From Candidatus Heimdallarchaeum endolithica (GTDB taxonomy: Archaea > Asgardarchaeota > Heimdallarchaeia > Heimdallarchaeales > Heimdallarchaeaceae), in contig CP084167.1 in the NCBI GenBank assembly GCA_021513715.1, positions 2,368,001 to 2,432,000 on the forward strand: DNA of 64,000 nucleotides, given 5' to 3'. The notes under the pieces are model-generated. The model did not search any database and was not told the DNA's origin. It saw only the letters and a list, made by a program, of their open reading frames with translations. How positions within the stretch are numbered: position 1 is the first letter of the stretch; each line of letters begins with the position of its first letter. Position numbers and translations under genes: made by a program. Below, in pieces: positions 22,390 through 51,108 of this stretch.

Positions 22390-22507
22390 TGGCGCCGCGC
22401 AAAGGACTTGAACCTTTGGTCTTTCGGTTGCTGCTCTTTTTACACCTTTCGTGCATTCTTTTTTTCTGATTAACAGCCGAATGCTCTACCGACTAAGCTA
22501 GCGCGGC
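22390..22507 (-). tRNA. trnN: tRNA-Asn(GTT) with 42-nt canonical 37/38 intron (22429-22470), encoded CCA
   Basis: Reverse complement folds as GCCGCGC/GCGCGGC acceptor, GCTT/GAGC D-stem, TTCGG/CCGAA anticodon stem with CT-GTT-A, AAAGG-TTCAAGT-CCTTT T-arm, G73, CCA. BHB helix CTGT/GCAG. Confidence 0.95.
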
Positions 22508-22509
22508 TA

Positions 22510-22620
22510 TGTTTTTGTTTTCCTTTTACGTTTCTTCTATTTTTCCTTTGTTTTTAAAGTTTTTTTTCTTTGCTTGCTTTTTTCTTTAGTTTTTTTTCTT
22601 TTTATTTTTGTTTTTTATCC
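22510..22620 (+). terminator. Long oligo-T tract, probable terminator zone for the giant-gene transcript
   Basis: About 110 nt of stacked T-runs on the + strand right after the giant operon and tRNA; archaeal termination uses oligo-U tracts. Confidence 0.4.
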
Positions 22621-28088: not shown

Positions 28089-28278
28089 AGTTTAACCTAT
28101 TGATATAGATTAAAAATGTTTACTACTTTTACTTTTTTGCCCTTACCTCTTTAAGCAAAAAACTAACTGGCTTTTTTGGCTATTTATCTGTTTTCTCTTC
28201 TTATCTTTTATTTTAGTATAGCTGATAAAAAATTTAAGAGGTTATCGAACTTTCAATAAAAAGTTTTTTTATTCTCTT

Positions 28279-28388
28279 TAGTACTTCCGAATTATCTCAA
28301 AAAGTATAAATTGAGAACACCCCAATGATAGTATGAACGCCTATAATTTTAACCTATAGAAATCGGTCAACTTATTGCGGAAGTACTA
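28279..28388. mobile_element. 110-bp MITE-like element with 11-bp TIRs and 6-bp target-site duplication
   Basis: TAGTACTTCCG (28279-28289) and CGGAAGTACTA (28378-28388) are perfect inverted repeats flanked on both sides by TCTCTT (28273-28278, 28389-28394); no coding capacity. Confidence 0.7.
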
Positions 28389-28436
28389 TCTCTTTAAGGA
28401 AATGTTAAAGTTCACCTCAAATCTTGGTACACAAAG

Positions 28437-30079: not shown

Positions 30080-31008
30080 CTAATTAATGTAATCGTTTAA
30101 CTTACTGTTCTTGTTTAACCAGTATTTTTTTCCAAACAATTTCTTTATTTTTGGGATTTTTTTATTTGGTGCAAAGATTTCATCTATATATTCACACATT
30201 CTACATTTTTCTTCACAAAAAGCTCTTTCTTTAATTACACAAGGTAATTGTTCTTCGATTTTTACTTTCACAACAAAAGATATAACCTTACTAATCCTCT
30301 TTAGTTCTATGTTATCCTCAGTAAAATCTAATATTACTCGTTTCTTTTCATTATTGTTGTTTAGGTACCACAGTTCAGGAACGATTTCGATGTTAGGTTT
30401 CTTTTTTCTAAGGATTTCAGAGTAGGTTAGAACTTGCTTTTTGTCTCTGAACGATTTTTCTCTTGTTTTTAGTTCTATCACTCTTATTGCTTTTCGATCT
30501 ACTGTCCAAGCTAAAATGTCTATTCGACCTGTTAAAAGAAATTTCTCTGATAATTCATACTCAATTTTATATTCAGTTCCGATAACAAGAGAAATTAGTC
30601 TTCCGTTATTAGTTTCTTCAACTAAAGTAGAACAAAACATAGCTAAAGAGCGTAAATTAAAATAAAGCTCATCGTCAAACTTTACTTCTTTTTCTCTCTC
30701 AATTATACAATCAAAGTCCTTCTCTCCATCAGGAAAGAAAAATCTTTCCTACACTCATTTAGAGCAGAAAAAAAAGATTCTTGGACGGATAATTTTTCTT
30801 GTATATAAAAATGTTCTACTAAGTCGAAATTATTTGATAAAACAGATTGTAGAAGTAGATGGTAAAAAGTTCCTAATTCCATAGACCGTGTAGAAGCATA
30901 CTCTCTTAATTTATTCATTTTAAGTAGAAGAGCGATATAAGGTCTAATTGTACAAAAATCATCATCAAGAACATCAGTAACGCTAATACGAATAGGTTTA
31001 GAGATCAT
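30080..31008 (-). pseudogene. Cas4-like PD-(D/E)XK Fe-S nuclease split by a single-base frameshift near 30738-30742 (or homopolymer sequencing error)
   Basis: N-half from ATG 31008: ISVTDV...FC..RPY...MELGTFYH. C-half: GRIDI...IELKT...KQVLTY...PC.....FCEEKCRMC. The downstream frame is open from ~30748, and one extra T in the T5 run joins them (...KDFFFPDGEKDF...) into ~310 aa. Confidence 0.75.
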
Positions 31009-31223
31009 GTTACTCACACTAATTATTAATTTTTGAATTAATTTATAAAAAAGGAAAAAGAGAATTATTAAAAAAGAATATAAAAAAATCCTATGAAAAC
31101 AAGTATTCCAAACAGTGAAAACATAAAAAGGAAATAAAGAGAATAGGAAGGGATTATTTGAATTAATTATAATAATAGTTGTAAAAAGCATGTATTGAGT
31201 GTACATAAAGTAAAGATAGGAGA

Positions 31224-31523
31224 TTAAGTGATTTCTTTCAATTTTTTTAATATCTCAACAACTTTCTTTCCTCTAGTAGTAAGCGAAAAAAACCTGCGGT
31301 TGTAAGGGGGTTCTTTTTTTTCATTAATCAGTTCCTGATCTAAAAGTTTGCGAACAGCGGTATAAATAGCTGTTTGCCCAATTTTTACAGTATCCTTAAT
31401 AATACTTGATAAATTAGCGTTCTTCTTTTCATCTAAATAAATGAGAATATGTATCGCTCCTTTTTGTTCTAGGGTTGCTATCAATTCTTTGAAAGAATAG
31501 TTCTCAGTGTCATTCATACGCAT
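31224..31523 (-). CDS. Winged helix-turn-helix transcriptional regulator (HxlR/MarR/ArsR-like)
   Basis: AIHILIYL...NLSSII...QTAIYTAVRKLLDQELI.......RRFFSLTTRGKKV pattern. Confidence 0.85.
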   Translation of the reverse strand: MRMNDTENYSFKELIATLEQKGAIHILIYLDEKKNANLSSIIKDTVKIGQTAIYTAVRKLLDQELINEKKEPPYNRRFFSLTTRGKKVVEILKKLKEIT

Positions 31524-31687
31524 TTAACACCGTTAGAATATATAAAACATGTCTTCGTCTTAACAATTAACGTAATTATAAAAACAAAAGTTTAAATAAT
31601 ATATTGTAGATAAACTAAATGAGTATTTATTCTTCAGTAATAGATATTCAGAGCGACGGAAGTGATAAAACATGAAAGGAGAAAAAA
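31524..31687. promoter_or_regulatory. Divergent promoter region between the wHTH/Cas4-like genes and the ParA operon
   Basis: 164-bp AT-rich gap between divergent starts, with TATA-like TTATAAAA and TTTAAATA on + and TTTATATA on -. Confidence 0.5.
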
Positions 31688-31963
31688 ATGCGAAAAAAAG
31701 AAAAAGGAAAAAAAACTTTTATTCATTATTTAGTCGCTCCAGACAATAAAAGGGAAGAAGAACAGTTTGCTTACAAAACTCTTAAACATTCTATAAAGGA
31801 CAGAATCTTATTTAATCCTTCGAGTACTTTTACTTTTCACTTCTATGATAGAGTCCAAGATTTTTTGCTTTCTTTAAAAACCATTTCACAGATTATTTTT
31901 TTAGAAATTTATATTTTTTTTAATCTTCCTTCATTTCACATATATGGAGGGAATAAGAAATGA
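31688..31963 (+). CDS. Small hypothetical protein, first gene of ParA operon
   Basis: Preceded by SD-like AAAGGAG; its stop overlaps the next ATG (ATGA at 31960-31963). Confidence 0.45.
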   Translation: MRKKEKGKKTFIHYLVAPDNKREEEQFAYKTLKHSIKDRILFNPSSTFTFHFYDRVQDFLLSLKTISQIIFLEIYIFFNLPSFHIYGGNKK

Positions 31964-33096
31964 CAATAACTGAGAATGAAACAATACAGCAGGAATCACC
32001 TATAGAATTCACTACAACTGTATTAACAAGATTCAAAATTCGTTTTCCACAAGAGAATTGCGATATTAAAGGAGGAGAGGAGTATCATATTTACTTGGAA
32101 AATTTGAGTAACGATACAGTAGGCAAACAAGGAGTTGATTTACCTATCACTCAAACAAAGGGTGGGAAACTAGAATTCACTTTATCTCATCGATTGAGGA
32201 AGTTGTTCAGTGTTGGAGACAAAGTAAAAGTTAAAGTTGTTAGCGCTACTGAAGAATTTTATTCTCCAGATAATTTTTTAGGAGAAAAACCAAACGAGCT
32301 AACAGACTTTTTAGGAAAAAAATTGTCAGTTGTTTTTCTTTATAGAATAGGAGAAAATAGAGGTTTAATTGCTAGCGAATGCGAAAAAGAAGAAAAAATG
32401 AAGGAACTAGAAAGCATAGAAGAGACATATGCTTTACTTACTCCAGAAAAGACAAGAAAAGGAAATAATGGGAGAATAAAAATACAAACGGAAATGTATG
32501 ATGATCATGCCGTTACTCGTTTTTTCATAAAAATGAAAAAATATAATTTGTTTAAGCAGAAGGAAGGTTTCTATCCTGTGGATTATTATTTATTAATTAA
32601 GAACCAAGAACCAATTACTGTATACGTTTGTCTAATGGTTATTACCACGCATGGGGTGTATAAATTCCTATTAGCATCAAAAATAGTCAAAGAGTTTGAG
32701 CGATTTCTTACTTCAAAATTGAATATTTATACTATTAGAGATAAATTATACGAATTAGAAAAAAAAGTAGAAAAAATAGTTTATGACTCTTTCAATTCTA
32801 AGTTAAGAAAAGAAGAGGAAGAGATAGGCAACTACTTTTCGACTAGTACTATGCTTGAGATAATGGATCATTCTTCTTCCTATGTGCTCAAAGCAATTCT
32901 TGCTCTGAACACTAATAATATAATTTCTAGAGATGGGATAGAAGAATATGTGGAAAAGGAATATAATATCAGTGATAAGGAATACATCACGTATTCTCTA
33001 TTGTATTTATTGGAAAAGGGGATAATACGAAGGATTACTGCAGCCAATGGCAAAACTTGTTTTTCATTGGTGAAAATAGATGACAAGAAAAAGTAA
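31960..33096 (+). CDS. Putative DNA-binding protein: N-terminal tandem AbrB/SpoVT-like hairpins and C-terminal winged helix
   Basis: KIRFPQENCDIKGGEEYHIYL and EFTLSHRLRKLFSVGDKVKVKV resemble AbrB repeats; C-terminal ISRDGIEEYV...SLLYLLEKGIIRR wHTH; overlaps the ParA start. Confidence 0.6.
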   Translation: MTITENETIQQESPIEFTTTVLTRFKIRFPQENCDIKGGEEYHIYLENLSNDTVGKQGVDLPITQTKGGKLEFTLSHRLRKLFSVGDKVKVKVVSATEEFYSPDNFLGEKPNELTDFLGKKLSVVFLYRIGENRGLIASECEKEEKMKELESIEETYALLTPEKTRKGNNGRIKIQTEMYDDHAVTRFFIKMKKYNLFKQKEGFYPVDYYLLIKNQEPITVYVCLMVITTHGVYKFLLASKIVKEFERFLTSKLNIYTIRDKLYELEKKVEKIVYDSFNSKLRKEEEEIGNYFSTSTMLEIMDHSSSYVLKAILALNTNNIISRDGIEEYVEKEYNISDKEYITYSLLYLLEKGIIRRITAANGKTCFSLVKIDDKKK

Positions 33097-33895
33097 ATTA
33101 CTAACTCTCTTCTCATTTGAAGGGGGAACAGGAAAAACCATGCTCGCGTTAAACATGGGAAAAATGTTTGTGCGAGAAAAAAAGAAAACACTAGTTGTTG
33201 AATTGGATATATTTAATCCTAGCTATCACTATCTTCTGAATAAAAAAGTGGAGAAGGAGAAATATTTAACCCATTGGTTATTAAAAAGGAATATTTCAGA
33301 CTCTTCAAAACGTAAAAATTTCGATGACTGTATATTAGAGCATGAAACAGGAATAGATTTTGCTATTGTAGAACCTGTTTTGACTCTCAATGAAATCAAT
33401 AATAGATATACTACACTCACTGCAGACACATTCCTAGATTTTTTGATGGGCTTGATAGTAGAAATGAAAATAAAATACGACTTTATAATCATAGATTGTC
33501 CTAGTACTTTGAATATATTCAGCGTAAATGCAATATTTGTAGCTGATAAACCAATATTAGTCGCAAGTCCCAACTTGTTCTTGCTAAAAGCGAATGCGGA
33601 AAGGATAGCCCATTTCCCAGAGTATGTTAAAATCAAACCTTTGGACATCATCGTAAATAATTTCAAAAACACATCCACACCAAATGAAATGAAACAAAAA
33701 ATAATGGATATATTGAATCTATCTTTCGATAATCAAATAATCATATTAGAACATTCTACTACTTATTTTAACGATGTGGTAACAGAAAAAAAACTGTTTT
33801 TAGATCCAGAACGAGACTATGTATTATATAATTGCATTTTCAACTATGTACGCTCTTATACAAGAGAACAAAAAGACCCCCCAATTCAATTATAA
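33080..33895 (+). CDS. parA: ParA/MinD-family ATPase
   Basis: Deviant Walker A FEGGTGKT..A.N, VVELD (Walker A'), YDFIIIDCP (Walker B), ADKPILV, IIVNN. Confidence 0.88.
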   Translation: MTRKSKLLTLFSFEGGTGKTMLALNMGKMFVREKKKTLVVELDIFNPSYHYLLNKKVEKEKYLTHWLLKRNISDSSKRKNFDDCILEHETGIDFAIVEPVLTLNEINNRYTTLTADTFLDFLMGLIVEMKIKYDFIIIDCPSTLNIFSVNAIFVADKPILVASPNLFLLKANAERIAHFPEYVKIKPLDIIVNNFKNTSTPNEMKQKIMDILNLSFDNQIIILEHSTTYFNDVVTEKKLFLDPERDYVLYNCIFNYVRSYTREQKDPPIQL

Positions 33896-37465: not shown

Positions 37466-38300
37466 TTCAATATTTTTCTCTTTTCTTCCTTCTTTTCTTT
37501 TTTTAGTTAATTAAAACCTTTGTATCTTTTTATTCATTTTTTGTTTTTGGAATTAATCTAACTATTCTCTTAATATAATTTTGTCATTTATACCTGCGTT
37601 TACTGGAGTAAAAATGAAATAATAATCTCAAACAACATTCTTTTTTCTTATTTTTTCTTCAAAAAGTAATGAAGTTATCATTTTTCTTCTTATGTCAGAA
37701 CATAGTTTATGCTCACCTTCTCTATCCTTGTCTGTACCGTCATAATCACTATTCTCGGTTTCATAATAATTGAACTCGTCTTTGGTTTTCTCAAACTCTC
37801 TGTTCCTCCTATCATTGACTGCTTACTCATTGTTATCCTTTCTACCTATTCAGTTTTTTTTCTTATAACTACCTTTTGCTTATTCATATCTTAAAGCAGA
37901 AGAAAAAGAATTTTTGGACATACTTATAAGTGGACACATGGCGATTATCATAAGCATGCAATATATATTGAATAGTATAGAGGCTTATTTATAGTAATAA
38001 TGACATATACAATCATGTATTACCCATATTTATTAACAATTAATATATGCGTCTTTTTGTTATTTTTACGGCTTGTTGTGTGTGATTTTAGTTTATTTAT
38101 AAACTTAACGCATATATTTATATATCAGTATTTGGCGATATGAGTATTTCCAAAAAAACATAATACCTCTTTTTGGCTCAAATAAACTGCAAATATACAG
38201 GAAGTGTTTAATATACACACAGATTTATAAAAAACTAATAAACAATTAATAGACTAGTTAAAAGCCTAATTTCTGTGCAGCTTTATATATAGGGGTTAGC

Positions 38301-38308
38301 TTTTTAAA
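38301..38308 (+). promoter_or_regulatory. TATA box upstream of candidate ncRNA
   Basis: TTTTTAAA 23-30 nt upstream of the first paired base (38331); a second TATA-like TTTATATA lies at 38282. Confidence 0.45.
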
Positions 38309-38330
38309 GAGAACGATAAGCGTACATTTT

Positions 38331-38540
38331 ATGAGTCAATTTAGACACTATCTCTTGTCTAATACCAACCCCAAGTACTTGAGTAGTGCTAAATTGGCTC
38401 ATGTTGCCTTGTCTCTGATACAAGGATCTGACTTCCTTTTAGACCCAGTAGAGAGTTTCAGCAGATATGGGCAACGCACAAAAAATGAGAGGGTGAATTC
38501 CTTCACTCTCTCCACTCTCCTTTTTATTTATTTTATTCAG
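38331..38540 (+). ncRNA. Candidate structured non-coding RNA: two abutting ~72-nt hairpins plus terminal hairpin and U-tract
   Basis: H1 38331-38402 (ATGAGTCAATTTAG-A-CACTA / TAGTG-CTAAATTGGCTCAT); H2 38403-38475 (GTTGCCT-TGTCT-CTGA / TCAG-C-AGATA-T-GGGCAAC); H3 38487-38512 (GAGAGGGTGAA-TTCC-TTCACTCTCTC), then T-rich. Non-Watson-Crick pairs are G:U on the + strand. Locally GC-richer than its flanks. Confidence 0.62.
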
Positions 38541-38757
38541 GTGGAAAAATGTTCGACTTTTTGAAAATTGGATTTCTATTTCAGTCTGTACTTAAGAAAG
38601 AAAAGGTAAACGTTTCTTTTTTAATTTACAATTATTGTATATCTATCAAACTCATCCAGTTAAAAGTTCTGGAATTTTCTTCCCCATTTAAAAACAAATT
38701 AGGTAATTATCATTTTAAAGTGAAAAATATTAGTTTTAGGAAATAGGTGAAAGATAA

Positions 38758-41589
38758 ATGAAAAAGCAAACAATAATTGTTTTCTGTATTATCTCCTTGT
38801 TTTTAATCTCTGGATTAAAAGCGCAAGAAGTAATAAAAACTGATTGTGAAAAATGCAATGAAACACAACTAATAGAAGAAGGTGCGATAGTAGCTGTTAA
38901 ATGTTTAGATAAAACTGTCGATGGAGCAGAAATTGTAAATAAATACAGTAATTTAGGTTTACAGATTTGCAATGTAACTAATCATGATTTGTTTCAGGAA
39001 TTTATTAAAAAGAATAATTTAGTTTATTCTGTAGTTAACACGAAGATAAAAATGAAATCTGCTATGCTTTCGGCTCAAAAGCAGATTGGTTTAGGGTATA
39101 AAGAAGAAGATAATATTCTTCCTGATCCAAATACAACAGTAGCAATATTAGATACTGGAATTGATCTTACTCATAACTACTTCAATAGTTCTCAACTTCT
39201 TCATTGGAAAGACTTTGTTGGTTCTTCAGTGGAAGAAGGACATGATATTTATCTTTCACCTACTGATATTAATGGTCACGGAACAGCAATTGCATCTATT
39301 ATTGCTGGAAACTGTACTGTAAATAATAGTATATTAAAATTCGAGAAAAATGTCACAAAAGGGACTTTAAAATTTGTTTCATATCTTGAAGAAACAAATA
39401 ATGAATTTTTAACCGTTAACGTTAGTTGGTCATCTAATAACAACATTAGTGTGGGTATCTACGACTTAGCAGAAGAGAAGATACGATATTCCTCTGAAAC
39501 TTGTTCAAATGGTTCTTTTGTTTGGAATCGGAGGATATACAATTCAGCGAGAGAGTATCTTATCTTCTATGTAGCAAATGAGGAAGGAGAAAATGTAGTA
39601 GAGGTAAGAGGAGAGTTATCTTTCCCCACACTTAATACTTTCAAGGGAGTAGTTCCTGGAGCAAATATAGTTGTATTAAAAGTTTTAGATGATCAAGGTT
39701 ATGGAAATGTGACTACGCTCTTAGAAGCTTTGGATTATCTATTGACTATAAAAGAAGAATATAACATCAAACTAGTCAATTTGTCTTTAGGTTTTAGTGA
39801 GAGAATAGTAGCGGTAGATGATGCAGTTACAGCAATAGTAGAGGAAGGGATTTTTCCTGTCGTTGCTGCGGGAAATGGAGGAACATCGGGAGAAGTCTAT
39901 TCTCCAGGGAGTAATGATTATGCTTTAACTGTTGGAGCAGTAAATGAGAGAGCAGAAGTAGCTTATTACAGCAGTCAAGGATGTGATTGCCCAACTAGAC
40001 AGATTAAACCAGATGTTTTAGCTCCTGGGGGATCATTCGGAATGGCTTTTCGTCCCATAATTGTGGCAAAAAGTGGAACATATAACGAAGTCAAACAAGT
40101 GAAAGGAACAAGTTTTGCTACTGCATTTATGACTGGAATGGTCTACAGAAAAGTGATAGAAGAAAAATGGGAATATAATAAAGAAAATGTACGAAAAGTG
40201 AAATATCTTATTCTTATGAGTACATACCAATCAAGAGCAAATAACTATAACGGAGACAATGATGGAATAGCACAAGAACCCGATTTAACAATTTACGCAA
40301 AAGACAGAGTAGAAGGATGGGGTATATATGGCTATGCTCCAGTTGTAAACTATACTTTTTCAGAAAGCGAAAAATCTTACTCTGATGCAAAATATTTATC
40401 ACCTATACACATTAACCATTATGATGATTTTGAGTATCAAAGAATTTACGTTGCTGAATTATGGACACCTAAAAATACTACAGGAAGCTATAGAATAGAA
40501 TCTCAAACTAATGGATTTGTATCAAATTCTACTGATTATACTCCTCATCTTGAAAATTGGACTTTTGTTCCTAAATTATCTAATTCTTCAGATGAGTACG
40601 GAAATCCAATTTTCTTTACTCCAGAATTCGCTGAAAGGGAAGATTTAATTTACTTTAATTTAAGTCCTGGTAGCCATTACTACTTTGTAGTTGCAATTAA
40701 TAGATACTTAGATTTAGAACCTTATAAGAGTCTGGGTAATTTTTGCCTTGATACATTTGAAAAAGGAATGCTAATTTCAAATTATTTTATTTATAAAACT
40801 TGGTATGATATTCATCCTAAAGTAATTCTAGAAAATAATACTGTTTATTTTGATGAGGTTGTAAGAGGAAAAATCGAATACCCTCAATATACGAAAATGA
40901 TTAGATTTGAGATGAATGGAATAGATTGCTTGAATTACTTTAATGCTACAACTCATGAGTTCGAAATATATGGATTAAGTGAAGGATCATATCAATTGGA
41001 GTATATTCTTGAATTAGGAAAAACGAGAAAAATTTTCTGGTTTCCTGGGATATATGTAGATAAAAGCCCACCAAAACAATTTTTCTCATTTATTGATAAT
41101 TGCACTATAAAAGAGAATACTACCTATGGTTTTACAACAAAAGATTATTCTCCAACCAACATTACTATCTATATTGACGGGAAAAATTTTGGTTCAAAAA
41201 TTCTGGATCCAGGTTTTGATACAATAAGCATTACAATAAAACCGAAGGAATTACCTTATGGTTATCACAATCTCACAATATTCGCTGTAGATTTATTTAA
41301 TAGAACATTATTTGTCAATTATACTTTTGTAACTTTAGAAAATTACGAAGAACCTACTGAACCTACTGAACCTACTGAACCCACAGAGCCTACTGAACCC
41401 ACAGAGCCTACTGAACCTACAGAGCCTACAGAGCCCACTGAACCTACTGAACCTACTGAACCTACAGAACCTACTGAACCCAATAATTTTGGGAAATACC
41501 CATCGATGAAATATTTAATAGGTGCAAGTGTAATAATCGCATTTCTTGCTGCAGGGTTTATTTTGATATACAAGCGTTATGGAGGTTAA
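38758..41589 (+). CDS. Membrane-anchored subtilisin-like (S8) serine protease
   Basis: Signal peptide; catalytic VAILDTG, NGHGT and GTSFAT; oxyanion VAAGN; KPDVLAPG; insertion in the catalytic domain; Ig-like C-terminal domains, PTE linker, TM helix and KR tail. Confidence 0.92.
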   Translation: MKKQTIIVFCIISLFLISGLKAQEVIKTDCEKCNETQLIEEGAIVAVKCLDKTVDGAEIVNKYSNLGLQICNVTNHDLFQEFIKKNNLVYSVVNTKIKMKSAMLSAQKQIGLGYKEEDNILPDPNTTVAILDTGIDLTHNYFNSSQLLHWKDFVGSSVEEGHDIYLSPTDINGHGTAIASIIAGNCTVNNSILKFEKNVTKGTLKFVSYLEETNNEFLTVNVSWSSNNNISVGIYDLAEEKIRYSSETCSNGSFVWNRRIYNSAREYLIFYVANEEGENVVEVRGELSFPTLNTFKGVVPGANIVVLKVLDDQGYGNVTTLLEALDYLLTIKEEYNIKLVNLSLGFSERIVAVDDAVTAIVEEGIFPVVAAGNGGTSGEVYSPGSNDYALTVGAVNERAEVAYYSSQGCDCPTRQIKPDVLAPGGSFGMAFRPIIVAKSGTYNEVKQVKGTSFATAFMTGMVYRKVIEEKWEYNKENVRKVKYLILMSTYQSRANNYNGDNDGIAQEPDLTIYAKDRVEGWGIYGYAPVVNYTFSESEKSYSDAKYLSPIHINHYDDFEYQRIYVAELWTPKNTTGSYRIESQTNGFVSNSTDYTPHLENWTFVPKLSNSSDEYGNPIFFTPEFAEREDLIYFNLSPGSHYYFVVAINRYLDLEPYKSLGNFCLDTFEKGMLISNYFIYKTWYDIHPKVILENNTVYFDEVVRGKIEYPQYTKMIRFEMNGIDCLNYFNATTHEFEIYGLSEGSYQLEYILELGKTRKIFWFPGIYVDKSPPKQFFSFIDNCTIKENTTYGFTTKDYSPTNITIYIDGKNFGSKILDPGFDTISITIKPKELPYGYHNLTIFAVDLFNRTLFVNYTFVTLENYEEPTEPTEPTEPTEPTEPTEPTEPTEPTEPTEPTEPTEPTEPTEPNNFGKYPSMKYLIGASVIIAFLAAGFILIYKRYGG
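41353..41481 (+). repeat. 9-bp coding tandem repeat, (Pro-Thr-Glu)x14 linker
   Basis: CCTACTGAA/CCCACAGAG units directly before the TM anchor of the S8 protease. Confidence 0.95.
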
Positions 41590-41595
41590 TAAAAA

Positions 41596-44500
41596 ATGTT
41601 CAATAAAAAATATAGTTTAGTTAAATATTTTTCTTTAATATTTTTAACTTTAATTTTCGTTCAATCATTATCAAATTCTGCGTTAATAAAAGTACAAGGT
41701 GATACCAATAATACGATACAAATTAAAAATTTATTTCGTTCTCATGAAAATGTATTAGGGGGAATAGAGTTTTCTGTTTACTGTCAAGTAGAAACTAATG
41801 GGTCAAATATAGTTAAGGAGGTTTTGCTTAGATATACAGAAGATGGAGAAAACCATACAACAAGAATGTATTCTAATTTCTACAGCTATTATGTAGGTGT
41901 TGTCCCTGGACAAGAAATCAATAGTTCTATAACTTACTGGGTAGAAGCTAAAGATAATGAAAATAATACTGCAAAAAGCATTATTGTAGGGCCTTTAACT
42001 GTTTTTGATGGAAATTTACCTCTTATAGGCGATATAATACAAAACCCAGTTGTACCTACAAATTTGGACACAATAAACATAACAACATGGGTTACCGACA
42101 ACGTAGGAGTGAAGGATGTAAAAATTGAATATTGGATCAATAATCAAGTTACTTCAAATATTATATTAATGAACAACGATGGAGGTGCAAAATATGTGGG
42201 AAGTTTACCTACATGTGAAATTGGAACAAAAATTGTTTATCGTATTGTTGCTGTGGATACATCTCCATTACAAAATACAAAATATTCAGAAAATAGAACA
42301 GTGTATATTACAGATGGTGTTCATCCATATATTGTCTTTTATGAAAGTGACCCAAATGAACCAAATGCAAGTCAAGAATTTTACTTAATCGCAGAAGCAT
42401 GGGACTCTACAGGAATAGATAAAGTAAATGTTGAAGTAACATATAGTTATAATTCTATTCCAATAATTTATGAGATGGAAAACATTCCAGACACAAATTT
42501 ATACCAGAAGAAGATAGTGGGACAGCCTGAAAATACTAATATCACATTCTTTTTCACTGCAATAGATTCTTCTTCAGAACATTTGAATTCATCTACACCA
42601 ACTTATTCAATAGTAATTCATGACAATGTAAAACCAATAATAACTAACGTTGTACATGAGATTCCAACTTACTTACCCAATTATTACATTGAAATTAATG
42701 CTACAATCACTGATGTATCAGAGATAGGGCGAGCAACGATTTTCTACACTTATGATAATGGAGAAAATATTACTTTGCGGGGAAGTAATATGGTAAGATA
42801 TGCCAATACCAGCGTTTTTCATGCAGGAATTGAAACACAAACCGCTGGAACAGTATGTACATATTGGATAGATGTGGAAGACATTCATCAAAATAGACAA
42901 GTTACAGAGAATTATAGTTTAACTTTTATAGATGGTATCCCACCAAAAATAGATAATGTAAATATATCACCAATAAATTCTACAACAATATTAGATAATA
43001 CAACCGTACAAGTTAACTGTTCTGTTACAGATGAAAATAACGTGACAGTAAAATTAGAAGTGAAAATAGTAGATTATTATGGGTTTGAAATAGAAACAAA
43101 AACATTTGATATGATTGAAAAAGAAGAAAACATTTTCGAATACAATATTACAGCTACAAATGCTACAAATACAGTTTACTGGACAATAATAGCTACAGAT
43201 GATTCACTTACCAATAATACTGCTTGCTATTCAAGTCATTATGTGGTAGTAGATCAAGGTTTACCACAAATATTATTGTGTGATACTGAACCAAATGACA
43301 ATAGTGATACTCAAAGTATTTACCTTAAATTAGTTGATGATGGTAAAATAAAAAATATAAGAGTTAGACCAGGTATATCTGATGGTTTATTCACTACATG
43401 GTATAACCCCACTTATTATGCTCCAGAGTTATCTGATTCATATTGGGAAGGAACAATCACTACTCATTTGAATCTTTACGGGTTAACAAATTACTACTTC
43501 AAAATAGAAGTAACAGTTTATGATGTATGGGATAATTCCTTTACAGATACATACATATTTCTAATTGAAGATAAAACTCCTCCACAAATAAATATTGTTG
43601 ATTATCCTGAAACATTAAACGAAAATGAAGATTTTAACATAACTTTACAAATTGTGGATAACTCCTCTTATACAGCTTGGCTTTTATATCAAGTAAACTA
43701 TGGAGAAGAATATATTGCTCCAATTATTGATACTAATGGAAATTTAACAGGAACTATTTCTTCTTCTAGTTATGATTTTAGTCAAATTTTGTTAATATAT
43801 ATTTGTGCAGAAGATGAGAAAGGAAATAAAATTCAAATAGAAAATCCATTAACCTACGTCATTACTGATGGAAATCCACCTTATATATCAAATGATACAA
43901 CGCTATTTAGTTATGATAATGTAAAGATAGCCTACAATTCTACATTAACTGTTAGAGCTATTGTTAATGATCCTTCTGGAATTGACTATGTAAAATTACA
44001 TTATCGTTATGCTGATGGCAATGAAGGAGAAATAGACATGAATATTGATTTTTATAATCAATATAATTACTCCGTAGAATTTAATATTGACACATTAAAT
44101 TATAGAAACACTAATGTTGAGCTTTGGTTAATTGCGAGAGATAATAGTGGGTGGGTTGTGAACTCTTATGAAAGCAAGGTGTTAGTTTTATTTAGAGATA
44201 TTTTCAGTCCTTCTGGAAAAATTTTGGATTCTTTGGAATATATAGAATTAAAGAATGAAAATATTTCAGTTACTGCTCAATTTAAGGATGATACTTATAT
44301 AAACATCAATTCTATTAAAATGGAAGTAAAATATTTTTCTCTCTCACTTCAAAATATTTCTCTTTCTCGAGTTATTTCTTCCACAGGAGAGAATGATTAT
44401 ATAACTGAATTTGAGATAGATCCTAATCTTTTAGTTCCATATGTTGATCAAAATATATCACTAAGGGTTATTGTTGAAGATAGTCAAGGTAATATTTTTT

Positions 44501-47500
44501 TCTCTCAACCTCTCATACTATTAGTCAAAGATACTACATCACCATGTATTGACGCTGATTCTTGGATATATTCCCCTCTAAATCCAAATGTAGAAAATAA
44601 AGTTTACCTTCCTTCTGTATTTGATGTATCTGGAATAAATGATACATTTACCCTTGTTTATCTTAATTCTTCCGAGAGTGAAACAGAACAATTAAACACG
44701 CTTTATGATTCAAATTTAAGTAGATGGTATGTACTTGTACCTAGTTTTCGTGCTCTTACTTTAATTACTTTAAATGCTACTTTTTCAGATATACATGGTA
44801 ATATTAATGGAGTTTTACTAACAGAAACCATTACAGATTTAGAAGCTCCTGTTATCTACTCTTTGATTACTTCTCCTGAACCATCAGATAACAAGCCAGT
44901 TGAATTTAGTGCAAATGTTTCCGATGATGGTGAAATTTATCTAGTTGAATTAATTGTGGAACAAAACGGAATGAACATCTCATATTTTATGAGTTACAAT
45001 TCATCATTATATGAGACAGATATTAATTTAGACAAGGGAAGCTATAATATTTGGCTAAAAGCTGTAGATATGTGTAATAAAGTATCATATTATTCTTCTA
45101 CTCTGACAGTTATAGATAAGACTCCTCCATCATTAATAAGCGTAAATAGTTATCCCTATGGTTTTCAACCAATTGATAAAAATGATTTTTATTTCATTGT
45201 AGAAGGTACAGATAATGAAGGATTATCTCAAATTATAGTAGAATATACAATTAACTCATCTTCTTACAGACAAATTCAGTCGGTTGCTAATAATTCAGCG
45301 ATTTTCATGATTAACGATACGGAAATACTGCCTTACGACACAATTCTTCTTACAAATATAACTATATTAGATAATGCCGTTTCACCGAATTGTTTAATTA
45401 AAACTACAAACTTACCACAGTGGATAGTAGGTGATAATACTCCTCCTGAAATTTACTCACATACAGATCATAATTTTGACGGTAGTTCAACAAGTGATTT
45501 CTATCTAACAGTATATATTACTGAAAATGATGTTAGAAATCACACTAACATTGATTCAACTATTTATTACAAATATTACAATGATAGCTCTTGGATGAAT
45601 CAATCATTATATTATGGTGGAGAAATTATTGAAGAACAATGTTATTATGAAGTAATGTTAAGTCCACCTTGGAAAGCAGGAACATATGAATATTATATTA
45701 CTGTGTCACTAAATGGAATGACGACACTATATTATAACGAAACAACTCCATTAACTTTTGCAATTGAAGATTTTACTTCTCCAATCATCAAATCTGATAG
45801 CTTGGTACACACTTCTCAAGACGAGCTTCAACCGATTAATAGCAGTAGTGATGAAGATATAAATGATTTTGTAATAAGTTTCATAGTAGTAGAACATGAA
45901 ACAGGGATAGATCTTACAATTGGTGATACTAACACAGGAATAAACGTTTTGCTTAGTTTGGATAGTGGTTCTAGTTGGACAAAATATGGGGAAGTAACTA
46001 ATGCACAATTTCTCGGCAATGGAGAATATCAAATTACATATACAATATCAGCAGATGATTTAAGAACATTCATTCACCATGAAACAATTTTATATAAAAT
46101 CAAATTGAAAGATTCTGCTAATAATGAAAAAATCTACACCTCTTTTGAAGGAGATACTTTTTCTTTCAACATAAAAGATTTATATCCACCACAAATTCAA
46201 TGGATACTAATAACAAAAGAAAGCAATCCTTCTCCAAATTATTGGGCTTATGATTTAGAAAATCTACCAGAAGGATATTACCTTGTAGATACAACTTCAA
46301 CACTTAACTATTCAATAACAGGCATTTCTCCCTTATTAGATGAAGGAGATTTTGGATATTCGGATATTATAAAAATTGGTTTGAAAATAAAAGATCATAC
46401 TGCGTTTAATAACCCCCCAGATATCAGAACTTATTTCAATTATGGTACAGAAAATATTAATATAAACAAAACAATATATGGTAACTCTGAATTTTTATTT
46501 TGGGTAGAGTTTGATTTAGCTAATATCGTCGGTTCAAATAACTTCAAATCACATAAAGACACCACTGAAACACCATTTAGGTTGCAATTAAACTATTACT
46601 TTATACTTACTGATTCATATAGCAATGAACTTACAAGTCAAAATTATTCAATCTATCTTTATGATACATATGCACCAAAATTAACTAATGGTTACAATAG
46701 ACCATACTTTACAGACTTAAATGATAATGTACGAGAAGATGAAGGTAAATGTGTATTACCAAATGAGTATAATAAACTTATGTTTTCTTTTGAAGAAGTA
46801 AGTTTAGTAACACAGAACGATATTACAATTCAGTTTTACGATACAAAAGGGGAAATATTCTATTACGAAGTAAACAATAACGAAATTAATTTGGATAATA
46901 ACGGATTTCAATATTCTGTTTCAATTACAATGGATTATAACACTTTTTTAAGTTTTCCTGATGTAAGATTTTGTATAAAGATAGTTATTAGTCCTAATGA
47001 TGGTCTAATATTAGAAAAATATTATTTGTTAGATATAGAAGCTTTAAATGTTTATTATGTTAAAATGGTAGCTAATTATAATGAAATTAATTGGGCAGTG
47101 GATGGAGGAACAGCGATAGCACATGCAGAAACTGGAGATATATATCCTGGTCAACCTTTAAATGAAGTAACTATTACTCTTGGAAACTTAATGTATGAAA
47201 CACATATTGAAGTTTATGCACATTATGAAATGACTGACAAATTTAATCCTACAACTAGTGATATTGTCTCTGTATCTCAGCTACTAAAGAGTTTTATCCA
47301 AACTCCTTCTTCTGATTTAAAATTAACCAAAATAATAAACTCTTGGGATGCTAATCCTGAATATGCGGGTAATATATATCTATTTTTGAAACTTTATTAC
47401 ACGTGGGATATCCCCTCTAATGCTATCTCCTCTTCAGATATAACAGAAGGAAAATGTTACATCTACATTCATCATAATAAAGCTGTGGAAGAAGTAGATT

Positions 47501-50500
47501 TTGCTTCATCCCCTGTTAGTCATGACGAAATTACAGATGAAGATTATAATTCTGGTTCATTTCAAGTAAAACTAACATTAAAGAGTTATTGGACTTTCTT
47601 ACCTACTCTTTTAGAATACTCTACTACGCTTACTTTTGTAGACATTACAGATTCAAGCAATACTTATGATTTTAACATAATTTGTACAATGAGTGCTGAT
47701 ACAGTTTTGCAGTCAAATTTAGAATACACGAACCTATATTACCTCAGTTTAACTTGTATTTTTGAGCTTCAATTAAGTACTATTATTGATAATTTAAAAC
47801 CTGGAATTTATTCTCTGAAACTCTTAGCAGGAAACATTTTAACAGAGAAGGTCGAGATTGATACAAATAATGATGAAACAGTAGACAAAACGTTTCCTCA
47901 AAACATTGTGTGCAGTATACAAGTTACTTACTCTGATAACAATCCTCCATCTTTAAGGGAAGATCCAGAATTTGGTTTAACACAAACCTATGAGTATGAC
48001 GAGCAAGATATAAAGAGTACATCTTTTAAAATTTTAGCTGCTGATGGTTATTTAGGTCTTCAAACACCCAGATTTTATTGGAGAAAAATAGGATCTACAA
48101 GTTGGAATGAAGCAACACTCACATATTCAAACGATTTTGGAAATGAAAAAAGATATTATGCTATCCTTTACGACCAAGATTTAGGCACGGAGGGTATAGA
48201 ATACTTTTTCACAATCGAAGATGAAAGTTGGAAAACTATTTTTGGCCGGCTAGAGGATAACAATTGGAACCCAGGAATGAAATACGGTTTCAAAAACACA
48301 CCAGACGAGCCTAGTATAAGTGATAGCGACATAAAGCCTTTGCTCTCCTTTCCAATACTGCCGAACGACCAAAATCTCAAACTTTCATATGTTGGTTGTT
48401 CTCCAAGTTCTAATACTTTGTCTTCTAATGATGGAGTAACGATTACTCTGCAATTTGACAATCTTATAGGCGATTTTACTGAAAGTGCACTATTTATAAC
48501 ATCTGACGTTAATAAGAAGTTTGAAACAGATAATACACTATATATTCGAATTAAATATTGGGATCATGATTCATACGTCTATCTTCGATCAGAAACTTCG
48601 GATATAATAAATTACAACTATATCAATAAACATTCACTACAATTAACAGTAAGATTACATGATAATATATGGAATAGTATAAGCGATACAGCAAAAGAAT
48701 TCAAATATTATATTAACTCTCACTATCATTTCAAATTTGATGAATTTGATTTTAATTATGATTATGAAACAGAGAAAGGAACAAGTAGCCAATATGGTAA
48801 CTGGCAGAAAATCACAGTAGTAGATGATGTTGCTCCCAAAATAACGGATGTCTTTATTTATGATTCTAACAATGAACATTCTATAGATGAAACATATAAA
48901 ATCTGTGCTTCAGCAGAAAATTCAAACACAGGTTGGCACGTATATGAAGCATCATCATTTGAACTTCAAGTATATATGAATAAGGAGGGAACAATAAAAA
49001 CTATAGATCTAGTTGGAAATGATTATTCTGCTTATTATGCAGTATATGAAATTAAATTTAGTGATTATTATTCTGATCTTAGTTCAGGCGATACTATCTA
49101 TCTACAAATTATCGCTTGGCATAGTAATAACGATAATATGAAAGGATTTTCAGCGACAACAAGCATATCTTTTACTGATACACATCAAACTTCATTAATT
49201 AGTTCTTATAGCGTTAATCCTTATGATAGTAATGATAAAAAGGACTTAAGGTATTATTCTCATACAATAAGTTTATCCTCTACAATAAACTCTAACCATC
49301 AATTTATTGTAACTCTGGAAGATCTTGATACAGATAACACAGCATTGAGTTGTACTATAGATGTAACATTTATTCCATATACAGTAACGAATTCCTATTA
49401 TTATAAATATACATATGGTGTCTCTGCTTCCTCCATTGACACTTCTACTGCACATAGAGCTGTATTCACTTTCGATATTACACCAAGTATGAGAGTAATG
49501 AACCATAATCCTGTGGCTACTGGTTCAGGTAGGTGGGCAGGAAATATTAAGATTACAATAGATTATGGTAAAAATTTAGAAAATACAAAAGTATGTGGGA
49601 AAAATATAATTTATGAAGATTATAACTCTCCTTACTTCTATTCATCTTCTTTAGATTTATCTTCAGGAAACATGGGTAGTCAAGTCCGTTTTACTTTAAA
49701 ATATCGAAAGTGGTCTCCACCCAAATACATGACTACACTAACTAACCACTTAGTGAAAATGCAATATAAGTATGGTTCAACATGGGTTGATTTGACATGT
49801 ACAAGAATGGAAGTTCATTCTGGGGGGTCAACGGGAAGGTCATATTGGTATATTTATTTTGATATGGATGTAAAATATAGTTACGCTCCAGATAGAACAA
49901 TGTATTATCGTTATAAGATTGTTTCACAAGACCAATCTAGTACTTATTATTCTTCAAGCAAGTATTTCACTTGGAAAGATGTTACAAATCCAACAATATC
50001 AACAGTTAGTTTCGCAGGCGATGGAGACCCCATGGTCAGTCAACGCATAAATACTAGAGTAAAGGATAATTATTATGTAAGCAATGTATATATTCAATAC
50101 TATTGGAGTGGACACGGTTCCAGTAGTAGTCCCTACTCTACAACTGCATCAAAATATTCTGGAAGTAGAACAGATGGATGGTGGAAGGCGTTCATACCAG
50201 GTACTACTCCCAATAAAAATGTGTATGTATACTATAGAGTAAAGGCAAAAGATAGTTCTGGAAGAACAACTTATAGTTCATGGAAAAGTTACCATTCATA
50301 TAGTTCTGGACCAATTTTTGGATTACTACTTTCTCATGCAGTTAATCAGCAAGAAGAACGTACATATTCTAATGAAACGAATTCTGTTGAAAAAATGTTA
50401 CCTATTTATTCTTCATATATTTACGATCATAATGGAATTATTTTAACTCTCGGCACAGGAGGAATAATGGCAAATGGACAACTTGGTTTATATCTTCACA

Positions 50501-51108
50501 ATAAACAATTCGAGAAATATTTACCTATACATAACTCTAACAATTATTTTACATTGAATGTATTCCTACCTGAGATAAACACTAATACTACTTTCTTTGC
50601 AGATATTGTTTTATGGAGTGTGTGGGGAAGAACTTATTATCTTTCAAATTTATGGGAAGAATATTCGGAAACTAAAATAGATTTGGAAGTTAATATCAAA
50701 GAACCTACTATACATACCAATATTGAAGGAGAAAAATTATTAATAGAAATAGAATCGGAAAGGGAAATATATCTAACAAAATTACATTATCGATACTTAA
50801 ATTCTACATCTTGGCAAACAATTTCTTACTACGGGATTATTGAAATACAACAAGATTTTGGTTATATTGATAAACCTGTTGAAATTTCCATTGAAACATG
50901 GAATGAAGGATTAACAAATAATTATGCAAAGATAGAACAGTTAATAATATCACCTTCTGTTAACGAAGAAAAACAAGTAGTTAATTATGTTCTACCTGTT
51001 GTTTTTGTTAGTTTGGGAATAGGTTCTATTCTAGGGGGAGTATATATTGTTCGTATAAGGGATAAAAGAGGTTTGTTAAAATTACTTAAAGGAGTGAAAA
51101 GAGAATGA
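41596..51108 (+). CDS. Giant surface protein 1 of element B (3170 aa): signal peptide, ~20 or more Ig-like repeats, C-terminal TM anchor
   Basis: Repeated D-x-x-P-P-x-I linkers (DGNLPLI, DGIPPKI, DKTPPQI, DNTPPEI, DLYPPQI, DDVAPKI, DVTNPTI); C-terminal VLPVVFVSLGIGSILGGVYIV plus basic tail; starts 6 nt after the protease stop. Confidence 0.9.
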   Translation: MFNKKYSLVKYFSLIFLTLIFVQSLSNSALIKVQGDTNNTIQIKNLFRSHENVLGGIEFSVYCQVETNGSNIVKEVLLRYTEDGENHTTRMYSNFYSYYVGVVPGQEINSSITYWVEAKDNENNTAKSIIVGPLTVFDGNLPLIGDIIQNPVVPTNLDTINITTWVTDNVGVKDVKIEYWINNQVTSNIILMNNDGGAKYVGSLPTCEIGTKIVYRIVAVDTSPLQNTKYSENRTVYITDGVHPYIVFYESDPNEPNASQEFYLIAEAWDSTGIDKVNVEVTYSYNSIPIIYEMENIPDTNLYQKKIVGQPENTNITFFFTAIDSSSEHLNSSTPTYSIVIHDNVKPIITNVVHEIPTYLPNYYIEINATITDVSEIGRATIFYTYDNGENITLRGSNMVRYANTSVFHAGIETQTAGTVCTYWIDVEDIHQNRQVTENYSLTFIDGIPPKIDNVNISPINSTTILDNTTVQVNCSVTDENNVTVKLEVKIVDYYGFEIETKTFDMIEKEENIFEYNITATNATNTVYWTIIATDDSLTNNTACYSSHYVVVDQGLPQILLCDTEPNDNSDTQSIYLKLVDDGKIKNIRVRPGISDGLFTTWYNPTYYAPELSDSYWEGTITTHLNLYGLTNYYFKIEVTVYDVWDNSFTDTYIFLIEDKTPPQINIVDYPETLNENEDFNITLQIVDNSSYTAWLLYQVNYGEEYIAPIIDTNGNLTGTISSSSYDFSQILLIYICAEDEKGNKIQIENPLTYVITDGNPPYISNDTTLFSYDNVKIAYNSTLTVRAIVNDPSGIDYVKLHYRYADGNEGEIDMNIDFYNQYNYSVEFNIDTLNYRNTNVELWLIARDNSGWVVNSYESKVLVLFRDIFSPSGKILDSLEYIELKNENISVTAQFKDDTYININSIKMEVKYFSLSLQNISLSRVISSTGENDYITEFEIDPNLLVPYVDQNISLRVIVEDSQGNIFFSQPLILLVKDTTSPCIDADSWIYSPLNPNVENKVYLPSVFDVSGINDTFTLVYLNSSESETEQLNTLYDSNLSRWYVLVPSFRALTLITLNATFSDIHGNINGVLLTETITDLEAPVIYSLITSPEPSDNKPVEFSANVSDDGEIYLVELIVEQNGMNISYFMSYNSSLYETDINLDKGSYNIWLKAVDMCNKVSYYSSTLTVIDKTPPSLISVNSYPYGFQPIDKNDFYFIVEGTDNEGLSQIIVEYTINSSSYRQIQSVANNSAIFMINDTEILPYDTILLTNITILDNAVSPNCLIKTTNLPQWIVGDNTPPEIYSHTDHNFDGSSTSDFYLTVYITENDVRNHTNIDSTIYYKYYNDSSWMNQSLYYGGEIIEEQCYYEVMLSPPWKAGTYEYYITVSLNGMTTLYYNETTPLTFAIEDFTSPIIKSDSLVHTSQDELQPINSSSDEDINDFVISFIVVEHETGIDLTIGDTNTGINVLLSLDSGSSWTKYGEVTNAQFLGNGEYQITYTISADDLRTFIHHETILYKIKLKDSANNEKIYTSFEGDTFSFNIKDLYPPQIQWILITKESNPSPNYWAYDLENLPEGYYLVDTTSTLNYSITGISPLLDEGDFGYSDIIKIGLKIKDHTAFNNPPDIRTYFNYGTENININKTIYGNSEFLFWVEFDLANIVGSNNFKSHKDTTETPFRLQLNYYFILTDSYSNELTSQNYSIYLYDTYAPKLTNGYNRPYFTDLNDNVREDEGKCVLPNEYNKLMFSFEEVSLVTQNDITIQFYDTKGEIFYYEVNNNEINLDNNGFQYSVSITMDYNTFLSFPDVRFCIKIVISPNDGLILEKYYLLDIEALNVYYVKMVANYNEINWAVDGGTAIAHAETGDIYPGQPLNEVTITLGNLMYETHIEVYAHYEMTDKFNPTTSDIVSVSQLLKSFIQTPSSDLKLTKIINSWDANPEYAGNIYLFLKLYYTWDIPSNAISSSDITEGKCYIYIHHNKAVEEVDFASSPVSHDEITDEDYNSGSFQVKLTLKSYWTFLPTLLEYSTTLTFVDITDSSNTYDFNIICTMSADTVLQSNLEYTNLYYLSLTCIFELQLSTIIDNLKPGIYSLKLLAGNILTEKVEIDTNNDETVDKTFPQNIVCSIQVTYSDNNPPSLREDPEFGLTQTYEYDEQDIKSTSFKILAADGYLGLQTPRFYWRKIGSTSWNEATLTYSNDFGNEKRYYAILYDQDLGTEGIEYFFTIEDESWKTIFGRLEDNNWNPGMKYGFKNTPDEPSISDSDIKPLLSFPILPNDQNLKLSYVGCSPSSNTLSSNDGVTITLQFDNLIGDFTESALFITSDVNKKFETDNTLYIRIKYWDHDSYVYLRSETSDIINYNYINKHSLQLTVRLHDNIWNSISDTAKEFKYYINSHYHFKFDEFDFNYDYETEKGTSSQYGNWQKITVVDDVAPKITDVFIYDSNNEHSIDETYKICASAENSNTGWHVYEASSFELQVYMNKEGTIKTIDLVGNDYSAYYAVYEIKFSDYYSDLSSGDTIYLQIIAWHSNNDNMKGFSATTSISFTDTHQTSLISSYSVNPYDSNDKKDLRYYSHTISLSSTINSNHQFIVTLEDLDTDNTALSCTIDVTFIPYTVTNSYYYKYTYGVSASSIDTSTAHRAVFTFDITPSMRVMNHNPVATGSGRWAGNIKITIDYGKNLENTKVCGKNIIYEDYNSPYFYSSSLDLSSGNMGSQVRFTLKYRKWSPPKYMTTLTNHLVKMQYKYGSTWVDLTCTRMEVHSGGSTGRSYWYIYFDMDVKYSYAPDRTMYYRYKIVSQDQSSTYYSSSKYFTWKDVTNPTISTVSFAGDGDPMVSQRINTRVKDNYYVSNVYIQYYWSGHGSSSSPYSTTASKYSGSRTDGWWKAFIPGTTPNKNVYVYYRVKAKDSSGRTTYSSWKSYHSYSSGPIFGLLLSHAVNQQEERTYSNETNSVEKMLPIYSSYIYDHNGIILTLGTGGIMANGQLGLYLHNKQFEKYLPIHNSNNYFTLNVFLPEINTNTTFFADIVLWSVWGRTYYLSNLWEEYSETKIDLEVNIKEPTIHTNIEGEKLLIEIESEREIYLTKLHYRYLNSTSWQTISYYGIIEIQQDFGYIDKPVEISIETWNEGLTNNYAKIEQLIISPSVNEEKQVVNYVLPVVFVSLGIGSILGGVYIVRIRDKRGLLKLLKGVKRE

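Follow-up and report, generated by a model that had tools for sequence, protein, structure and literature searches.

The structure at positions 38331 to 38512 of the window (the whole 64,000-nucleotide stretch of the Candidatus Heimdallarchaeum endolithica chromosome that was analyzed) is genuine, and it appears to represent a genuine, undescribed family of RNA leaders carried by aloposons, with a function that we infer. The reading we lean toward, with a little better than even confidence, is that it is a leaderless, translated attenuator leader of the giant-gene operon.

The aloposon in the window and its giant-gene operon

The features used to define aloposons are a pair of giant genes and, upstream of them, a four-gene module that includes ParA (PMC8813620). 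The window contains such an element from Ca. Heimdallarchaeum, in which the core module is followed by cargo genes, the structured region, an S8 protease gene, and two giant genes. The host genome (G000) is a single 3.33-Mb circle, and that of its nearest relative, Ca. Heimdallarchaeum aukensis (G001), measures 3.08 Mb. The window element is called A here; elements B and C likewise lie in G000, element D lies in G001, and four further variants (A2, E, F, and B2) came from metagenomes or MAGs.

30080 to 33895: aloposon core module, with a split PD-(D/E)XK nuclease, a wHTH protein, a 91-aa ORF, a 378-aa protein, and ParA/MinD
38539 to 38746, + strand: SD and 65-codon ORF (67 codons in B and F), under weak constraint (pN/pS 0.62)
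38758 to 41589, + strand: S8 subtilase-family gene, the first long gene of the operon
41596 to 51108, + strand: giant gene 1, Otus-type, 3170 aa, Ig-like
51105 to 64000, + strand: giant gene 2, Ephialtes-type, 6099 aa, extending past the window

The stop codon of the 65-codon ORF overlaps the SD of the protease gene, and the ORF was absent from C, D, and E. Small, weakly constrained aloposon ORFs of this kind (31688-31963 and 38549-38746 in the window; orf183 and orf189 in G002, a genome of another genus) had pN/pS values of 0.62 to 0.76 and stops that abut the start of the next gene; they may be ribosome-delivery spacers, not proteins.

Several other observations concern the elements as such. 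The Cas4-like nuclease (30080-31206) was present as two ORFs in the window, as an intact 310-aa protein in contig L074, and as an IS-interrupted gene in C, and a lone nuclease copy was found at G000:2102666, which corresponds to the position of the element in G001. An 11-nt motif ending in GACGGAA (about 31655-31665) precedes the ParA operon; it also occurred in B, C, D, and G002 contig C39, and hence in two genera, and represents a candidate operator or partition site. Three types of element end were seen among A, B, and C, and no integrase: A has ~45-bp degenerate direct repeats (29951 and 69482 in window coordinates), B has direct repeats of ~75 bp where the 16S gene ends, at its 3' side, and next to C lies an incomplete second copy of its tRNA-Asn gene and of the region upstream of that gene, in inverted orientation (G000:2352059-2352249 compared with window 22415-22608). 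An IS remnant (37633-37925) and a MITE-like repeat (28266-28401) were each multicopy in the genome. Orphan C-terminal parts of Ephialtes-type genes (G000:1204786-1205287 and 1899016-1905788) resemble cassette-swapping polymorphic proteins.

Fold of the leader

The structured region is, as described in the earlier note, a GC-richer island in an AT-rich spacer, with 42 to 43% GC at 38350-38499 vs 21 to 31% in the flanks. On the + strand it folded into two abutting hairpins, P1 (72 nt) and P2 (73 nt), followed by the 11-bp P3, at -72.9 kcal/mol.

38119 to 38130, + strand: 12-bp upstream word common to A, B, C, and D, located 212 to 309 nt upstream of the AUG; may serve as an operator or promoter
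38282 to 38289, + strand: upstream TATA-like box, in the same position in all variants
38303 to 38308, + strand: TATA-like box at -28 from the AUG, predicting a start at or beside 38331
38331 to 38564, + strand: leader ORF, 77 codons here and 84 to 138 in homologues, ending beyond the next start codon
38331 to 38402, + strand: P1, long hairpin with the AUG inside its first three pairs; 14-bp base fully paired in every variant
38366 to 38378, + strand: apical motif of P1, the invariant 13-nt CAACCCCAAGUAC, in frame Asn-Pro-Lys-Tyr
38403 to 38475, + strand: P2, long irregular hairpin; the lower stem and one upper pair covary, the apex is variable
38487 to 38512, + strand: P3, 10- to 12-bp hairpin with compensatory changes
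38513 to 38537, + strand: invariant CACUCUCC followed by a U-rich stretch, a candidate signal for termination or for aCPSF1

The shuffle z-score of the fold was -6.0 on the + strand vs -3.2 on the - strand, and for the core of the structure -7.0 vs -2.7. Ranked by GC-corrected stability among ~2600 sampled non-coding 190-nt windows, the fold came first, with its two paralogues in the host genome at ranks 11 and 12; elsewhere in the genome, the scan also picked out strongly folded non-coding windows at G000:1570306 and 1053916. The non-Watson-Crick pairs of the + fold, five in number, were all G.U, as the earlier note had stated. Its description of twin hairpins of nearly equal length held for the window, but equal lengths were not conserved, since P1 measures 63 nt in C and D, which have an additional 28-nt hairpin. 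The 11-bp hairpin and the U-tract that it had listed were likewise both present, but the tract (38521-38525) begins 8 nt past P3, and this is therefore no canonical bacterial terminator; terminator prediction called none at this site. An Rfam search at gathering and E-value thresholds gave no family matching the leader RNA.

Directly 3' of P3, the 8-nt pyrimidine word CACUCUCC and the U-rich region can pair with the P3 5' strand in a slipped register that is 4 to 8 kcal/mol weaker. When P3 was forbidden, only this slipped pairing appeared, and no conserved upstream antiterminator helix was found. Read from the sequence, the invariant 3' strand of P3 has 6 to 8 nt of complementarity to the downstream SD. 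Two further pairings were rejected. A kissing contact of the P1 and P2 loops, 6 nt long in A and B, was broken in E and absent from C and D, and re-pairing of the 5' strand with a second TGACT copy would cost 11 to 21 kcal/mol.

The RNA is conserved ahead of the giant-gene operon

The RNA occurred once per element, immediately ahead of the giant-gene operon, in 4/4 elements of the two complete genomes, and a conserved structure in related elements, which the earlier note had made a test of its reading, was found before this operon in all 8 variants. The copy in element B, which carries IbrAB, adjoins the 16S gene, and is the same as HeimV2, was 87% identical to the window RNA, while element C, just upstream of the window, holds a diverged third copy. 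With a total of three copies in G000 and one in G001, each within an aloposon, the dispersed MITE that had been considered is not what is seen here. A covariance model scored A to D at 193 to 237 bits, with a next best score of 37, and, across 47 genomes of the order, detected no leader RNA outside the genus. When metagenome, viral, and genome collections were scanned for patterns, the D copy already known was recovered and all other matches were chance ones; viral contigs scanned with protein queries yielded no further leader RNA, and distant homologues of the 378-aa protein were on contigs that were too short or had no such operon. Two related giant operons in G002 have ParA directly preceding the protease gene, lack the RNA, and have leaders with a simple hairpin only. 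So far, the family appears to be confined to one genus.

Aloposon-like ParA-protease-giant operons were located at G002:C7 18929-51642 and G002:C39 49372-81257, and also on contigs C114 and C43 of G006; those of the second genus have no nuclease, 378-aa gene, or leader RNA nearby.

Within the genus, the RNA was kept with the operon despite exchanged upstream DNA (F) or downstream DNA (E). The ParA proteins of A and C share 28% identity, and BLAST of the giant proteins of A against those of B and C gave no match. Of the words common to all four element modules, the longest (17 nt) surrounds the AUG, and the 13-nt loop motif ranked among the next longest; exactly three copies of this motif were present in the host genome, one for each element. 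Deletions of the promoter and P1 5' region in contigs L072 and L073 coincide with a stretch identical between A and B and were therefore treated as assembly artefacts.

Helices were anchored on the motifs, giving 28 pairs in 8 sequences, and 223 of these 224 pair cells held; together with the presence of one copy per aloposon, this supports the earlier view of an element-encoded, conserved structure that acts at the RNA level. Four of the 28 pairs had changed on both sides and eight on one side, each to or from G.U, and the upper part of P2 showed one additional double change. The P1 base was 100% paired, vs 25 to 40% in slid controls. Its covariation score was reached by 32 of 500 shuffles, and thus does not clearly exceed them; because the 8 sequences represent only about three independent lineages, we regard P1 covariation as supportive, not significant. 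The G.U-type changes argue against a two-strand cruciform, and taken alone they are compatible with folded single-stranded DNA.

The transcript is predicted to begin at an AUG with an open frame

The earlier note had placed a TATA box at the archaeal spacing upstream, and this was confirmed. In host genes without an SD, TATA boxes are most frequent 30 to 27 nt upstream of the ATG (37 at -29, against a background near 6), and the box nearest the leader AUG, at -28 in A, B, and E and at -30 in C, D, and F, falls inside this peak. P1 begins exactly at the A of the invariant AUG. Further upstream, at 330 to 390 nt from the RNA, 32-bp iteron-like tandem repeats were seen in three copies in C (G000:2360384-2360470) and two in D.

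From this AUG, the frame was free of stops through all hairpins and the U-tract in 8/8 variants, whereas the other two + frames contained 4 to 7 stops each. By shuffling, the chance of an open frame was ~0.015 per sequence; with invariant columns fixed, it was 0.02 to 0.065 for the A/B type and 0.007 for the C/D type. Variants E and F were discovered via their ORFs, and their open frames are therefore partly ascertained and do not count as independent evidence. The ORF always ended past the U-tract, and, A2 aside, 16 to 68 nt beyond the next start codon. In A2, it forms one continuous frame with the 65-codon ORF, terminating at the protease SD. The single base by which A2 differs from the window may reflect strain variation or an error in sequencing. 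The first 41 codons of A and B differ by 11 non-synonymous changes and 1 synonymous change, and in A and its Guaymas-type variant the reading frame shifts downstream of P2. Only four in-frame codons are invariant, with no run of one amino acid, and these four keep minority third bases (10 to 27% usage). Together, these patterns suggest selection on the open frame and not on the peptide. Since an invariant AUG with an open frame is predicted to start the RNA, the label non-coding RNA given to it earlier is probably wrong.

A model of translation-dependent attenuation

We propose that the region is the 5' leader of a ~31-kb protease-Otus-Ephialtes transcript, which would be gated by translation-dependent attenuation. 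Transcription would start at the AUG. In the default OFF state, with no ribosome loaded before about 72 nt are made, P1 would close over the AUG, P2 and P3 would fold, and polymerase would terminate at the bare U-tract, either intrinsically or via aCPSF1, leaving a ~195-nt RNA. In the ON state, early ribosome loading, or a factor that opens P1 by binding the invariant loop, would allow a ribosome to melt P2 and P3 and cover the U-tract, so that transcription proceeds. The invariant loop would be the likely input of the switch. The peptide would be a by-product, the open frame alone being selected; a ribosome that has to cover the U-tract would explain why stops are selected against although the peptide itself is not under selection.

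U-tracts cause archaeal polymerase to terminate whether or not a hairpin is present, with aCPSF1 assisting (PMC13675443), and shielding of nascent RNA from aCPSF1 by ribosomes has been put forward as speculation (PMC8116511). The host has an aCPSF1 gene. Just 19 nt separate the invariant 8-mer from a conserved SD and AUG in A, B, and F, too few for a second promoter, which implies read-through in these variants. Translational coupling typically involves gene overlaps of -1/-4 (PMC10666635), but the overlaps here are 16 to 68 nt, and translation of the leader could therefore occlude the next start and reverse the sign of the effect. Against the attenuator stand the lack of a conserved antiterminator or zipper pairing, the lack of a sensing run, and the G002 operons that have no such RNA. 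Among the three functions offered by the earlier note (nuclease guide, antitoxin, and attenuator leader), the attenuator leader nonetheless seems to fit best.

Alternative readings

It is possible, but doubtful, that the region encodes a stand-alone ~195-nt trans-acting small RNA that is fully terminated at the U-tract, with the operon having its own promoter; its C-rich loop or anti-SD-like 3' end would pair with mRNAs, or an element protein such as the 378-aa one would bind it. The very stable multi-hairpin fold, the TATA box, the U-tract, and the exposed invariant motifs would all suit such an RNA, as would its co-occurrence with the nuclease/378-aa module in 4/4 complete elements, both being absent from the two G002 operons. 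However, the open frame and the fixed position are left unexplained, and the SD and AUG of A, B, and F leave no space for another promoter. No conserved target was found in the elements or the genome, and no antisense target in the elements or 16S rRNA. This alternative and the following one are partly compatible with the attenuator, and the attenuated RNA could additionally act as a small RNA.

The twin hairpins can be compared with put, EAR, and conAn2, which are processive antitermination RNAs. A cis-acting RNA of this sort, whose hairpins would bind polymerase and make it resist U-tracts along the 31-kb AT-rich operon, with P3 and the U-tract as a checkpoint, seems unlikely. Abutting hairpins do head a very long operon of a mobile element, the invariant loop suggests protein contact, and pLS20 has both an attenuator and an antitermination RNA at the equivalent position (PMC13401043). 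On the other hand, neither sequence similarity nor an Rfam match was found, the leader is not followed by a conserved partner gene (C, D, and E have no 65-codon ORF), and an open frame would not be required.

The invariant loop contains a 10-nt complement to the anticodon arm of host tRNA-Pro(GGG), centered on an in-frame CCC codon. Since this was equalled by 1.8% of motif shuffles in a post hoc test, we treat it as a lead only. That the loop binds this tRNA, making the leader a tRNA-sensing riboregulator of new architecture in Asgard archaea, would be a long shot; if true, it would link the giant-gene operon to host tRNA status.

Less probable again is a single-stranded DNA or cruciform site (a transfer or replication origin, or a partition site) whose inverted repeats would be recognized by either the wHTH protein or the 378-aa one. 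Single-stranded DNA would fold too (z -4.0 on the + strand) and tolerates G.T pairs, ParA and the nuclease are nearby, and the elements have no known integrase; the TATA spacing, U-tract, and open frame nevertheless indicate a transcript, and the changes to or from G.U are at odds with a two-strand cruciform. Slightly further down we place a small protein gene in which structure is secondary. Gene callers annotate it, B and C can be aligned in one frame (~34% identity), and a comparison of C with D gave a pN/pS of 0.46 for the entire ORF, the Otus overlap included. Its length, however, varies from 77 to 138 aa and its frame shifts as noted above, pN/pS in P1 was 2.9 for A vs B, and its amino-acid changes preserve base pairs while the invariant codons retain minority third bases.

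Least probable of all are a guide RNA for the Cas4-like nuclease and a type III-like RNA antitoxin for HEPN proteins: genes of both types are found within 8 kb in the window, but HEPN-like, DUF4145, and Mrr genes occur in A only whereas every element has the RNA, which leaves the antitoxin unsupported, and, for the guide, no spacer-like or variable segment matched element ends or targets, the RNA is intact despite a nuclease gene split in the window and IS-interrupted in C, and one variant instead has IbrAB genes immediately upstream. A telomerase- or retron-like template RNA was also rejected. The loop is identical to the Tetrahymena telomerase template; PF00078 was absent from both genomes and no Pfam reverse transcriptase was found in the scanned parts of the giant proteins, and we therefore consider this likeness a coincidence.

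Significance and comparison with known systems

Aloposons have no known mechanism, integrase, or regulation. The leader RNA family is small, but its motifs are the best conserved nucleotide motifs of the aloposons, and it could provide a handle on when proteins of 3000 to 6000 aa are produced and a marker for locating more such elements. If the attenuator reading is right, the leader would exemplify ribosome-driven post-initiation control in an Asgard archaeon by a design of which we found no description, in which the start codon is hidden within the basal pairs of the first hairpin and an open frame, but no peptide, is under selection, and it would be a natural substrate for studying ribosome protection of nascent RNA against aCPSF1.

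The elements themselves match the described aloposons and HeimV2 in their twin giant genes, four-gene ParA module, and tRNA- or rRNA-adjacent location (PMC8813620). That paper does not describe the leader and contains no occurrence of "non-coding," "Rfam," or "RNA structure," and a later Asgard mobile-element paper does not mention the leader RNA.

Like a T-box (RF00230), the leader has a putative specifier, an in-frame codon, distal in a long first stem, that is complementary to a tRNA anticodon loop, and a conserved UGGG upstream of its last hairpin. Unlike a T-box, it has no antiterminator, and the downstream genes are not amino-acid genes. A T-box riboswitch was rejected: RF00230 gave no match at these loci even at E 10, and the UGGG is paired in P2 and would mispair with the A73 discriminator of tRNA-Pro(GGG), which ends in ACCA.

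With the cATT/conAn system of pLS20 (PMC13401043, PMC8191782), the leader shares long imperfect stems, a hairpin and U-tract, and a place at the head of a >30-kb operon of a mobile element. It differs in that no conserved zipper antiterminator and no adjoining conAn1-like gene were found and the U-tract is 8 nt off the hairpin; a zipper-type attenuator was rejected, as a 5-nt match was present in the window copy only and absent from B, C, and D. The likeness to this conjugation-operon attenuator is one of position, by analogy, with no sequence relation and short of the full definition of that family.

In mycobacterial leaderless short-ORF attenuators, the position of the ribosome is proposed to set downstream expression (bioRxiv 10.1101/834739). 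The Heimdallarchaeum leader differs from them in its ORF of 77 to 138 codons, which crosses the U-tract and has no sensing codon run, in its base-paired AUG, and in belonging to an archaeal mobile element. It resembles them in an AUG that would be the transcript start and in a short ORF within a structured leader. By analogy, with no sequence relation and outside the full definition of the class, these attenuators would be its closest functional counterparts.
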